From an uncultured Alphaproteobacteria bacterium (GTDB lineage Bacteria; Pseudomonadota; Alphaproteobacteria; CAAHEQ01; UBA3637): a stretch of 64,000 nt of DNA. Position 1 is the stretch's first letter, and every line of letters begins with the position of its first letter. Under the pieces are notes generated by a model. That model had not been told where the DNA came from and did no database searches. It worked only from the letters and a program-made list of their open reading frames with translations. The position numbers and the translations under genes are program-made. Shown here in pieces: positions 18,807 to 26,138 of this stretch. The stretch is from contig CALXXX010000037.1 of assembly GCA_944392795.1 (NCBI GenBank), forward strand, positions 601 through 64,600. Direction: 5' to 3'.

Positions 18807-21800
18807 TTAGAACAATTCCAAAGAAGAGGAAGAACTACCTCCTCCTGGCGTTGTCACTTGCTGTTGTTGTTGTAAAGGCGTTGAAATTCTCTCTGCCTGT
18901 TCAGATGAAGGATAAGAACTTAACCCTTGCTGAGAATTATACAATTCTTCTAAAGTCGATGGGCGTCCACCCGAGGAAACGGATTGAGAGCTGGTCGGTG
19001 TAGGCTGATAAAGCGTTTGTGTCTCATCAGCTTGATTGGTTCCGATTTCTTCCTGTGTCTCACCCTCTCCTGTATATCCAGGATCATAATATACCTCATC
19101 TGCTGGTGCAAATGTGCTTTGATCAGGAGAAGAAATATCTGCAGTAGAAGCAGCTCCTCCCATCGAACCGCCTACCGGACGCTTAGCCATTCCATATTGT
19201 TGCCCTGGTGTCCTAGCCTCAGTTGTATCTGCACCCATCTCAGCCTCATAATCATCAACATCATCTTCTTCTGTCCTCAACCATAAATCCTCCATAGCAA
19301 AGATGGTCATCCTTGTACCTGCCGGAACAAAAACAACTGGCGGAGTAGAAGAAGATTCCTCAATTAACTGATTAAAAATCATTTCCATATCATCAATAAA
19401 ATTCTCACGAGCTTCTTGAGCTGCCTGTGCACGATCGGATTGAGAAGAAGTGCCATAATTTTGATTTTCAGTTACAGTTTCATCAGAAGCGACCAAATAG
19501 CTAATTGCCGAAACCATTGTAGATTGTAAGATTGGTTTACCATAACGTGCTAAGAACATTTCATCCAAATAAGCAGCAACACCTCCACGACCTTGAGCGT
19601 CGCCAGAAATCGCTTGAAGTGTAAAAGAACCACCATCCGGACGAATTAATCGTTCCCAAGAAATCTCCAATTTAGCGACATGATTTGTTCCAGGACTTCC
19701 TGTTACAGAACCTATAAGCTTACTACCCGCAGGAATAATAATATTCCGACCATCTTCTGCATAAACATGACGTTCTACAATTGCCGATGCTGGAACAGAC
19801 ATATAACGACTGTCAATTGAACGCTGTAAAACAGCAGGAATAGCTTTATCTTTTAGTATCATTCGGCTCATATCCACAGGCCAAGAAGAAACCGTTTTTG
19901 AGCCAAAGTCTTTAGCTTGTTTTTTCTTAGCTCTAGCCAAGACACGACCATCTGGTGTAATCTTAGATAGTTTTGAACCAATTCCCTGTTTCATTCCTTC
20001 TCTGCGCTTTGCTAATAAATTACGCATTTGAGCGGCCTGTTCGGGAGAAAATTGAAGGATTTCTTGACCTGTAAATTTCTGATCAGAGCCTGCTCTTAAC
20101 TCATCCGCCAACAAGTTATTAGACAATGAATAAGGAACACCATTTTTTAACTGACCAACCACAGCTCCTGTCATCGGATTAATAATAGAATTATCTGGTA
20201 AAACCATAAATTCTTTATCTCCGATAGCAATCCGACGTCCGCCTAAATTTAAGCCTCCAGCACCAAGACCTGTTCCTTCCAATAAATTACGTCCAGATAC
20301 AAATCCTGTCGCGCCGCTTTCAGGAGACCATCTCCCTATTATATTACCATCTGGGCCATATAAAACGCCGTCTCGTAATGTTCCTATGACATTTCCATTC
20401 AAGTCACGAATGACTCCGTTAGCATCAATTGTTCCAATTAAATTGCCATTCGCATCATAAACATAACCGCATTTAATTGTATAAAGAACTTGACCTTTTT
20501 CATCGCGAATCGTCCCATTATATTGGGCATTCATACAATTATCATCTGAAGTCCATTTCCCTATAATGTTACCGTCTGGATCTAATAAATTACCATTTTC
20601 ATCTATACGACCAATTACATTTCCATTCAAATCACGAATGACCCCATTAGCATCAATTGTTCCGATTAAATTGCCATTTGCATCATAAACCTTACCACAT
20701 TTAATTGTATAAAGTAACTTACCACTGTTATCATGAACAGTTCCATTATATTGAGCATTTAAACAATCCAGAGAATCTGGAGACCATTTTCCAATAATAT
20801 TCCCATTTGCATCAAGTAAATTGCCATTTTCATCTATACGGCCAATGATATTACCATTCAAATCACGAATAACACCATTTTCATCAATCGTTCCAATTAA
20901 ATTGCCATTTGCATCATAAACTTGTCCACATTTAATTGTGTAAAGCAAATTACCTGCATTATCTGTAACAGTTCCATTATACTTACTATTAACACAAGTA
21001 TCATCGCCAAACAATGTTATACTTCCATCTGGATTAATACGACCCCACGGTTTTCCGTTAATCATAATCGTACCATCTGGCAACACTTCACCTATTTGCT
21101 CACCATTCGTATTATAGACTTTACCATCTTTAATATAGCCGATAATATTACCATTTGCATCATACAGATAATTCGGCATTGTCGTAATTCCATTTTTACC
21201 TACTTTACCAATAATATTACCTGCATTATCGTAAATATTACCTTCATCATCAATTCGTCCGATGATATTGCCATTTGGATCATAGAGCGTACCATCAGCA
21301 CCTACGGTAAATAAGTGCTTTCCTTTATTATCAAAAACACGACCGGCTTTATCCATTGTCCCCATAATTTTGCCATCTTCATCAAACAGCAATTGTTCCT
21401 TTTTCAAATCCATTACACGACCGATCACATTACCTTCATTATCTACGACAGTACCATCTCCTAACACTTTGCCGATTACTTCGCCTTTGCTGTTAACAAC
21501 TTGACCGTTTCGTAGTACTCGACCAATGACATTCCCATTTTCGTCAACAACGATACCGCGTTTTAAAACTTTACCTATTACATTACCGTCATGATCGATA
21601 ACCGTCCCATCAAACAAAGAGCAACCGATAGAAACACCACTGATATCTACAACATCAGCGTCTGGTAACGTCCGTCCAAGAAGTGTTCCATCTTCAGCTA
21701 TAACTGATCCTTTTTGAACAACACCTCCGACATTGGTTCCATCAAGAGATACGGCCGAACCATCTAAGTTCAACACAGCTACTACTTGACCATTTCCATC

Positions 21801-26138: not shown

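Follow-up and report, generated by a model that had tools for sequence, protein, structure and literature searches.

In the type IV secretion systems (T4SS) VirB10 is the only subunit to cross both membranes, and it is believed to relay an energy signal from the ATPases of the inner membrane to the gate in the outer membrane. The usual periplasmic linker of VirB10 is approximately 100-150 amino acids (aa) long and proline-rich, and the VirB10 ring of the solved minimal systems contains 14 copies. The canonical VirB10/TrbI proteins (A. tumefaciens VirB10, pKM101 TraF, R388 TrwE and Xanthomonas VirB10) have a short tail, one transmembrane (TM) helix and a TrbI barrel with a two-helix antenna, and virB9 and virB11 as gene neighbours. 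Here we describe a protein that has all of these features and is approximately 5-6 times longer. It is encoded in a 64,000-nucleotide stretch of DNA (the window) from an uncultured Alphaproteobacteria bacterium (GenBank assembly GCA_944392795.1, contig CALXXX010000037.1, positions 601 to 64,600 of the forward strand), and positions below are those of the window. In this giant VirB10 the usual linker is replaced by an ASH-like domain, approximately 20 beta-flower domains and a glycine hinge.

Among the alphaproteobacterial systems, the rvh (Rickettsiales vir homologue) T4SS has a VirB10 of ordinary size and is without VirB5. CagY of H. pylori is a giant among the VirB10 homologues, its VirB10 domain being preceded by a large repeat region. 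A preliminary description of the present locus, made from the DNA letters, took CagY as the only well-known repeat-expanded VirB10. DotG/IcmE of Legionella and Coxiella is a second, a VirB10 homologue of 1,000 to >1,500 aa with variable pentapeptide repeats, whose number varies between and within species with recombination evident (PMC6761968).

The beta-flower fold was defined from AlphaFold models and placed in the Tubby clan, with the motif [DNEQ]xxG at the hairpin tips (Durairaj et al. 2023, PMC10584680). The flowers of the family are shallow, closed barrels of 8 or 10 strands with 4- or 5-fold symmetry. The proteins described are small and single-domain, many of them with a lipoprotein signal or a central helix, and there is no mention of VirB10 or TrbI (PMC10584680). 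In the full-text literature that could be searched, no paper was found on the giant-VirB10 architecture or on the T4SSs of this lineage.

The giant virB10 gene occupies positions 18807-26138 of the minus strand, stop codon included. In the list of open reading frames (ORFs) and its translation it is a single, uninterrupted reading frame of 2,443 aa (approximately 257 kDa), assigned by Pfam matches to TrbI and the Bflower families and by >120 full-length homologues. The ORF is VirB10. Its C-terminal beta-barrel domain (aa 2094-2287; 19278-19859, minus strand) matches the whole TrbI profile PF03743 (2-188 of 188) at E=4e-31. A phmmer search of PDB sequences with the same region found ComB10 (E=2e-16) and Xanthomonas VirB10 (E=6e-11), and TrwE too (2bhv, 6gyb, 7o3j). 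An AlphaFold2 (AF2) model of aa 1631-2443 resembles every solved VirB10 C-terminal domain in Foldseek (TMt 0.5-0.67), with matches to Xanthomonas VirB10, TrwE, CagY, TraF, ComB10, DotG and TraB. Inside the domain two long helices are predicted (aa 2193-2217 and 2235-2264), one on each side of a loop of low confidence (19347-19562, minus strand), as read from AF2 secondary structure and the predicted local distance difference test (pLDDT). They lie in the aligned region of solved VirB10s, and this antenna projection is presumed to be the outer-membrane-spanning element.

The N-terminus is also that of a VirB10. A cytoplasmic tail (aa 1-18; 26085-26138, minus strand) carries the motif SS(S/L)EQ(Y/H)xKKSNR, which is kept across the family in the N-termini and the consensus. 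A single TM helix follows as the inner-membrane anchor (aa ~19-40; 26019-26084, minus strand) and is the sole strong hydrophobic window of the whole protein in a Kyte-Doolittle scan. Thus the claim of the preliminary description that the giant ORF is a VirB10 with an anchor and a C-terminal VirB10/TrbI domain is borne out by the Pfam match, the TM scan and the structure matches. Its reservation that the C-terminus might not score as VirB10/TrbI is answered by the PF03743 match, although the domain lies at the Pfam coordinates given above and not at nucleotides ~19360-20170.

Between the anchor and the barrel the protein departs from the canonical form. An ASH/PapD-like (MSP-fold) beta-sandwich is predicted at aa ~81-193 (25560-25898, minus strand), a feature beyond those that had been described before. 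It contains the nearly invariant Cys134 and Cys146, and Cys198 and Cys201 lie just past its end. Proline makes up 1.7-3.9% of the residues across the repeat array, and only aa 41-80 attain 15%. This is not the composition of a proline-rich VirB10 linker. The array is followed by a Gly-rich flexible hinge (aa 1946-1966; 20241-20303, minus strand; 33% Gly, AF2 pLDDT <50). Next is a pre-TrbI segment (aa 1967-2093; 19860-20240, minus strand), which is kept in the family consensus and is modelled by AF2 as two further hairpins and then a basic helical stretch with a helix at aa ~2032-2056.

The array itself extends over approximately 1,730 aa (aa ~213-1945; 20304-25502, minus strand) and is defined by the Pfam Bflower families, a 17-aa period, a domain hidden Markov model (HMM) and the AF2 models. 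It contains approximately 100 units of 17 aa, which make approximately 20 beta-flower domains (~17 five-fold and 3 four-fold). The five-fold family Bflower_2 matches 17 stretches at E=2e-117 (385 bits against a cut-off of 38). The four-fold Bflower matches at E=1e-47 (162 bits against a cut-off of 25) and DUF3659 at E=6e-33. The number of domains is approximate because the 22 domain-size matches of an HMM seeded on aa 760-852, which tile aa 213-1946, overlap in part.

The repeat unit, given as ~12 residues in the preliminary description, is one of 17 residues with the consensus V-D-x-N-G-N-V-I-G-R-V-L-P-D-G-T-V, in which the 100% G is by construction of the anchor. Consecutive G..hG anchors are spaced by 17 residues in 23 cases, by 34 in 7 and by 51 in 4. 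The array has 67 G..hG motifs against 15.6 +/- 3.8 in 2,000 shuffles, and 33 spacings of 17, 34 or 51 residues against 0.3 +/- 0.5 (shuffle maximum 3). A BLOSUM autocorrelation has its maxima at 17 and at multiples of 17 across the array, and they stand out best in aa 226-1130 and 1461-1945. The hairpin-tip motif [DNEQ]xxG occurs at 135 sites in the giant VirB10 and falls in unit positions 2-5 as D-x-N-G. A BLASTP comparison of the whole protein with itself returned the identity match only.

An AF2 model of aa 41-640, built from a 39-sequence family alignment, reached a pLDDT of 88.9 and a predicted TM-score of 0.70. It shows the beta-sandwich, one helix and then continuous hairpins that are regular, with pLDDT >90. 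The giant VirB10 thus shares with the beta-flower proteins (PF21785/PF21784, clan CL0395) strong HMM matches, the [DNEQ]xxG tips and all-beta hairpin predictions. It differs from those described in that approximately 20 flowers are concatenated in a core subunit of a secretion system and the array is helix-free. An RHS/YD shell was considered as another fold and rejected: the RHS_repeat match of 38 bits is a sum in which no stretch is significant alone, and the teneurin TM-score is ~0.1.

The barrel is followed by an acidic S/T/Q-rich tail (aa 2288-2443; 18810-19277, minus strand). It was described correctly at the outset, and its length is 156 aa. The tail has a net charge of -20, is 35% S+T+Q and is predicted to be disordered past aa ~2306 (pLDDT 30-50); a disordered tail with an aromatic end is a further difference from canonical VirB10. 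The final residue is F in 104 of 121 family members and Y in 9 (endings LF, MF and YF). In the window the last two codons are at 18810-18815. A conserved aromatic end thus closes an otherwise variable tail. Many family members also have a P-(V/I)-x-P motif approximately 10 residues before the end.

The array is under strong purifying selection, as strong as that on the TrbI domain. In comparison with a 96%-identical relative (locus L040; dS ~0.2-0.75 by region), the ratio of nonsynonymous to synonymous rates (dN/dS) is 0.015-0.083 in the array, 0.020 in the TrbI domain, 0.12 in the tail and 0.31 in the N-terminus. The array has no indels against L040 or against a 91%-identical relative (L005); the internal indels of both are confined to the tail, the most variable part. 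In an alignment with the 15 closest orthologues (54-63% identity), no indels of at least 5 residues fall in aa 226-1645, with one exception. Identity there is 66-68%, compared to 36-48% in the ASH region and 28-45% in the tail. Across 39 family members (29-64% identity) the glycines of the array are invariant at fixed positions and cysteines 402, 475, 554 and 627 are invariant or nearly so.

Length is also nearly constant among close relatives. In six of eight strain-level clusters (sets of sequences at least 90% identical) the full-length members have one fixed length, a single 1-aa variant aside; examples are 2201 aa in 14 of 15 listed members and 2156 aa in 15 of 15. A few strain-level relatives are short. 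Cluster members P0357, P0380 and P0386/P0387 have only 452-1,726 aa, some of them on contigs of 69 kb and 98 kb, and in one strain-level relative two pieces of the giant gene lie on a 9-kb contig. Frameshifts, pseudogenes or errors of assembly in the giant gene could account for them.

Variation in copy number is restricted to one part of the array. Three tandem cassettes of 76-79 aa ('...YNGT..D..G.LLYTIKCG.VYDANGNLIGTID...') form its C-terminal end (aa 1716-1945; 20304-20993, minus strand) and are supported by Tandem Repeats Finder (TRF), orthologues, strain clusters and Pfam, where Bflower and DUF3659 each match three stretches. The TRF array at 20386-20981 (231-bp period, 2.6 copies, 82% matches) is the only relevant tandem array in the 7.3 kb of the gene. 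Orthologues have one, two or three cassettes, and in two of the eight clusters strains that are 97.7-99.9% identical differ by exactly one 79-aa unit. Counts were taken from alignments and strain clusters, since family-wide cassette HMM counts are noisy and the model cross-matches ordinary flowers. Because copies differ among both orthologues and strains, variation of the recombination type exists, confined to plus or minus one domain of approximately 20. The variable repeat region proposed in the preliminary description is therefore reduced to one cassette that varies by one copy; the rest of the array, with its low dN/dS, absence of indels against close relatives and fixed length in most clusters, is not a fast-varying region.

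Relatives of the giant VirB10 are widespread. A search of 5.8 billion proteins gave 174 matches. The best 120, which were examined, have 1,598-2,484 aa (median 2,203) and all carry TrbI together with Bflower, Bflower_2 and/or DUF3659. They come from Alphaproteobacteria metagenome-assembled genomes under the record names 'TrbI/VirB10 family protein', 'DUF3659 domain-containing protein' and 'hypothetical', so that some family members are already labelled TrbI/VirB10 in the databases. A genome scan with one genome per GTDB species found 428 stretches that encode relatives. The best 80 of these, the loci analysed here, cover most of the giant VirB10 and are all from uncultured gut or rumen Alphaproteobacteria, a few bins being mislabelled. 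The hosts are human, yak, buffalo, roe deer, goat, sheep, horse and rabbit. In an exhaustive HMMER search with TrbI only, the matches divide sharply: above ~190 bits they are giants, fragments or the second genes of split pairs, and below ~160 bits they are mostly proteins of 450-630 aa. The breadth of the family and the abrupt change in size make the expansion look like one lineage-specific innovation, and for the same reasons an artefact of assembly is excluded.

At 14 of the 80 loci two neighbouring genes, placed between virB9 and virB11, together encode the giant VirB10. Canonical VirB10 is one gene, and in the giant family the split is found in one clade, which contains the most divergent loci (25-29% identity; L056, L060, L062, L069, L072, L074 and L077-L084; for example L082:9335-13756 and 13779-20735). 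The split is at one conserved point and the two genes together encode ~2,400-3,800 aa. Gene A (1,037-1,574 aa) has the conserved N-terminus, the TM helix and hairpins, and always ends in '...GY(V/A)L(Q/P)EVAKNRRN'. Gene B (1,322-2,318 aa) has a classical Sec leader where the start is well called, then 'QEITAI(N/D)F(N/D)G', hairpins and the TrbI domain. The first aligns to aa ~3-1131 of the window protein and the second to aa ~806-1936 and the TrbI region, and at several loci the two are in different reading frames. Comparison of these loci suggests that the VirB10 anchor and barrel can work as separate chains. The separate Sec signal peptide of gene B supports the view that the array is exported to the periplasm.

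The operon (minus strand) consists, in order, of genes for five secreted proteins, a second VirB8-like protein, a lipoprotein, VirB8, a VirB9 with a SPOR-like domain, the giant VirB10 and VirB11. The giant gene is separated from virB9 by 29 nt and from virB11 by 12 nt. The virB11 ATPase gene (17805-18794) matches Pfam T2SSE, and TIGR02788 at E=2e-40, under the curated cut-off; it is present in 79 of the 80 loci. The 556-aa VirB9 (26168-27838; CagX family, Pfam E=4e-12) has its core in 73 loci. Its C-terminal SPOR-like (peptidoglycan-binding) domain (~26177-26407) scores E=0.0015, just short of the Pfam cut-off, and is found in 75 loci; Pfam showed SPOR again in the VirB9 of L079. virB8 (27931-28695; Pfam E=1e-15) is present in 70 loci. 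So is a 72-aa lipoprotein with the lipobox LLVAC (28717-28935, 58% identity), which by position and lipobox only is a candidate VirB7. The second VirB8-like paralogue (28979-29599; 206 aa, one TM) is in 68 loci. The window copy has no Pfam match, and in L079 both paralogues match Pfam VirB8, the positional counterpart of this one at E=8e-13. Each part of this module, from the second VirB8 to VirB11, is thus in 68-79 of the 80 loci. With the virB9/virB11 setting in addition to the barrel and the anchor, the preliminary description was correct in outline.

The five secreted proteins (29609-36038, minus strand; 546, 251, 823, 249 and 268 aa) have signal peptides visible in the sequence. The 251-aa protein is weakly TrbJ-like (E=1e-4). 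The 823-aa protein (32010-34481, minus strand) has approximately 500 aa of S/G-rich repeats of the 'GS.LSNW' type followed by a VirB5-like domain (PF07996, E=2.5e-6). Four of the five, including the VirB5-like and TrbJ-like proteins, are in just 3-6 of the 80 loci, and the 546-aa protein is in 38. Because it is present in so few loci, the 823-aa VirB5-like protein suits the role of a variable, exposed component better than VirB10 does.

On the plus strand are three paralogous, VirB6/TrbL-like polytopic membrane proteins (480, 418 and 839 aa; 5954-7396, 8460-9716 and 9719-12238) with 5-9 TM segments and mutual BLASTP matches of E=1e-38 to 1e-11. Their own TrbL matches are weak (E=0.006 and 1.7), and an 81%-identical homologue (P0509) has PF04610. 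A 350-aa secreted protein is encoded between the first two. Between these genes and virB11 (12351-17762, plus strand) are a double-helix-turn-helix regulator of 313 aa and proteins of 285, 496, 486 and 198 aa without a family match. They recur beside the operon in 11-16 of the 80 loci and could act as regulators or substrates. Housekeeping genes make up the flanks (folD, rsmA, surA, lptFG-lptD, xerC-like, aroK, htpG, murA-like and a class A penicillin-binding protein), and the neighbourhood varies by clade, for example dnaK and dnaJ in L003. Housekeeping flanks and clade-specific neighbourhoods fit an old chromosomal system and not a mobile element. One of the flanking genes (39505-42741, minus strand; 1,078 aa) encodes an LptF/LptG permease (aa 6-355), which serves LPS export at the inner membrane, fused to the outer-membrane LptD (aa 411-1014). 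Both domains are present in 119 of its 120 best homologues (39-91% identity, 1,060-1,098 aa), several of them on contigs equal in length to contigs with a giant VirB10, and the fusion is a second covalent inner-to-outer-membrane link in the lineage.

As a chromosomal, lineage-wide alphaproteobacterial T4SS with a duplicated VirB8, tandem VirB6-like paralogues and apparently more than one locus, the system resembles rvh. It differs from rvh in having several VirB5/TrbJ-like genes, a SPOR-like VirB9 and no virD4 after virB11. DotG is likewise enlarged by central repeats and its TrbI dome domain matches that of the giant VirB10 (9ngw). However, DotG belongs to a type IVB system, whereas the giant VirB10 has VirB-like neighbours (VirB8, VirB9 and VirB11), a period of 17, a beta-flower fold, an essentially fixed repeat number and no pentapeptide match in Pfam. 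The CagY analogy holds only weakly. The C-terminal domain of CagY superposes on that of the giant VirB10 (6x6s, 6odi), and the giant VirB10 also has a small in-frame copy-number polymorphism. In contrast to CagY, its repeats are 17-aa beta-flower hairpins and no CagY chain in PDB matches it outside the C-terminal domain, which upholds the earlier view that the expansion is independent. Extensive direct repeats in the DNA were not found, the single TRF array being the only relevant one. Approximately 87% of the array is without DNA repeats, under strong purifying selection and of fixed length, and there is no cag-island context.

The reading that we prefer, at a probability of roughly 60%, is that the giant VirB10 is a subunit of a chromosomal, vertically inherited VirB-type (type IVA-like) system in which the array is a structural scaffold. 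Together with VirB9 and the lipoprotein, the C-terminal domains would make up the ring in the outer membrane that is known from the solved systems. The array would sit in the periplasm, between the inner-membrane anchor and the outer-membrane barrel, a position that we infer from the TM-to-barrel topology, the conserved cysteines and the Sec leader on the split half in the 14 species of the fission clade. The same evidence gives no support to the surface exposure that had been suggested for the array. One array per subunit would enclose the translocation channel in a fixed scaffold of very large size, for example a cage, a ring or a strut, and this scaffold may do in one polypeptide the job of the accessory proteins of the Cag and Dot/Icm machines. 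The SPOR-like domain of VirB9 and the scaffold may tether the machine to peptidoglycan, and the cassette number could tune the scaffold length by one domain.

Several observations weigh against this reading. Approximately 20 domains in series could by our own estimate be longer than the width of a typical periplasm, so that geometry is a real problem for a scaffold. No solved structure in PDB matches the hairpin array in Foldseek, and support for the closed 'flower' geometry therefore comes from Pfam and from the fold description of Durairaj et al. 2023 (PMC10584680). Some change in length is evidently tolerated or selected, given the one-cassette polymorphism. VirB4, VirD4, VirB2, VirB3 and a relaxase were not found in the 64-kb window, where VirB4 and VirD4 were sought with Pfam and NCBIfam on ORFs of at least 150 aa (and five short exceptions) and with a Walker-A search of 19 otherwise unannotated ORFs. 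There is also no Walker-A ORF of VirB4 size within 10 kb on either side of the VirB10 gene in the 80 loci. A complete, working T4SS is for these reasons assumed, and if the machine works VirB4, VirD4, VirB2 and VirB3 must be encoded elsewhere.

Other explanations of the array account for parts of the same evidence. The flowers might bind peptidoglycan or lipid and mainly anchor or position the T4SS in the envelope without forming a cage. The conserved SPOR-like domain on VirB9 in the same operon, the location of a fungal DUF3659 protein on lipid droplets and the LptF/G-LptD fusion, which hints at an unusual envelope, would all suit such a ligand-binding array. On the other hand, beta-flowers are not known to have a binding site or a ligand, the SPOR match is just short of the Pfam cut-off, and the array is acidic (net charge about -57) and without the basic or aromatic loop tips described for membrane-facing flowers. 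We regard this as an unlikely alternative, though one that deserves some weight. Tuning or immune evasion as in CagY, by host- or environment-exposed repeats that are rearranged by DNA-repeat recombination and so modulate the T4SS, is less probable again. The precedents of CagY and DotG, the tandem cassette with its 231-bp period and 82% DNA identity, the one to three cassettes among species and the one-cassette difference in two of eight clusters are what would be expected of it. The part that varies is only ~13% of the array, however, and the other ~1,500 aa have no DNA-level repeats or indels and a dN/dS of 0.015-0.083. Furthermore, six of the eight strain clusters are of invariant length, the topology and the fission-clade Sec leader put the array in the periplasm, and its beta-hairpins are dissimilar to CagY outside the C-terminal domain. 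On the whole, the CagY-style story is largely unsupported.

An array that passes out to the cell surface and serves there as a sheath or adhesin, the role proposed for the CagY repeats, is very improbable. It could draw on a weak likeness to hairpin shells (RHS_repeat at 38 bits; a teneurin YD shell at E=2e-7 in Foldseek) and on the several secreted VirB5-like proteins of the machine. The shell likeness fails at the level of TM-scores and of single stretches, as stated above, and the array precedes the barrel in a chain that is itself anchored in the inner membrane, and is conserved in a way that surface adhesins are not; for exposed, fast-evolving parts the VirB5-like proteins, which are poorly conserved, are more plausible. 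That the ORF is chimeric, assembled from collapsed repeats, had been raised at the outset and can be given practically no credence. Repeats can mislead short-read assemblers and the exact giant VirB10 sequence is absent from a 15-billion-protein collection, as is that of the window VirB9. Yet the same architecture at similar length is found in >120 independently assembled proteins (1,598-2,484 aa) and 80 species-level loci, the 96%- and 91%-identical relatives are collinear with indels only in the tail, and the repeats are too diverged in DNA to collapse.

A bolder form of the scaffold reading, which we hold to be doubtful, is that the array, with approximately 20 flowers per chain multiplied by the copies in the ring, builds a rigid megadalton periplasmic strut or cage that fixes the geometry between inner and outer membrane. 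In this reading the two-gene version means that anchor and gate of VirB10 need not be one chain, which would run counter to the picture of a continuous energy-transducing tether; together with the LptF/G-LptD fusion, the array would point to an unusual envelope whose inner- and outer-membrane machines are hard-wired to each other. The split tether in 14 of 80 loci is a natural experiment on the need for covalent continuity in VirB10 and makes that question directly testable. The conserved 20-domain array and its natural split would surprise a T4SS specialist, and the comparison with CagY shows that a VirB10 may be large and repetitive without having a variable region of the CagY kind. The beta-flower fold, previously a structural curiosity without an assigned function, gains a defined cellular context. 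The bacteria of the human, ruminant, horse and rabbit gut thus carry a widespread and apparently unstudied family of VirB10 proteins in which the tether is replaced by approximately 20 folded domains.

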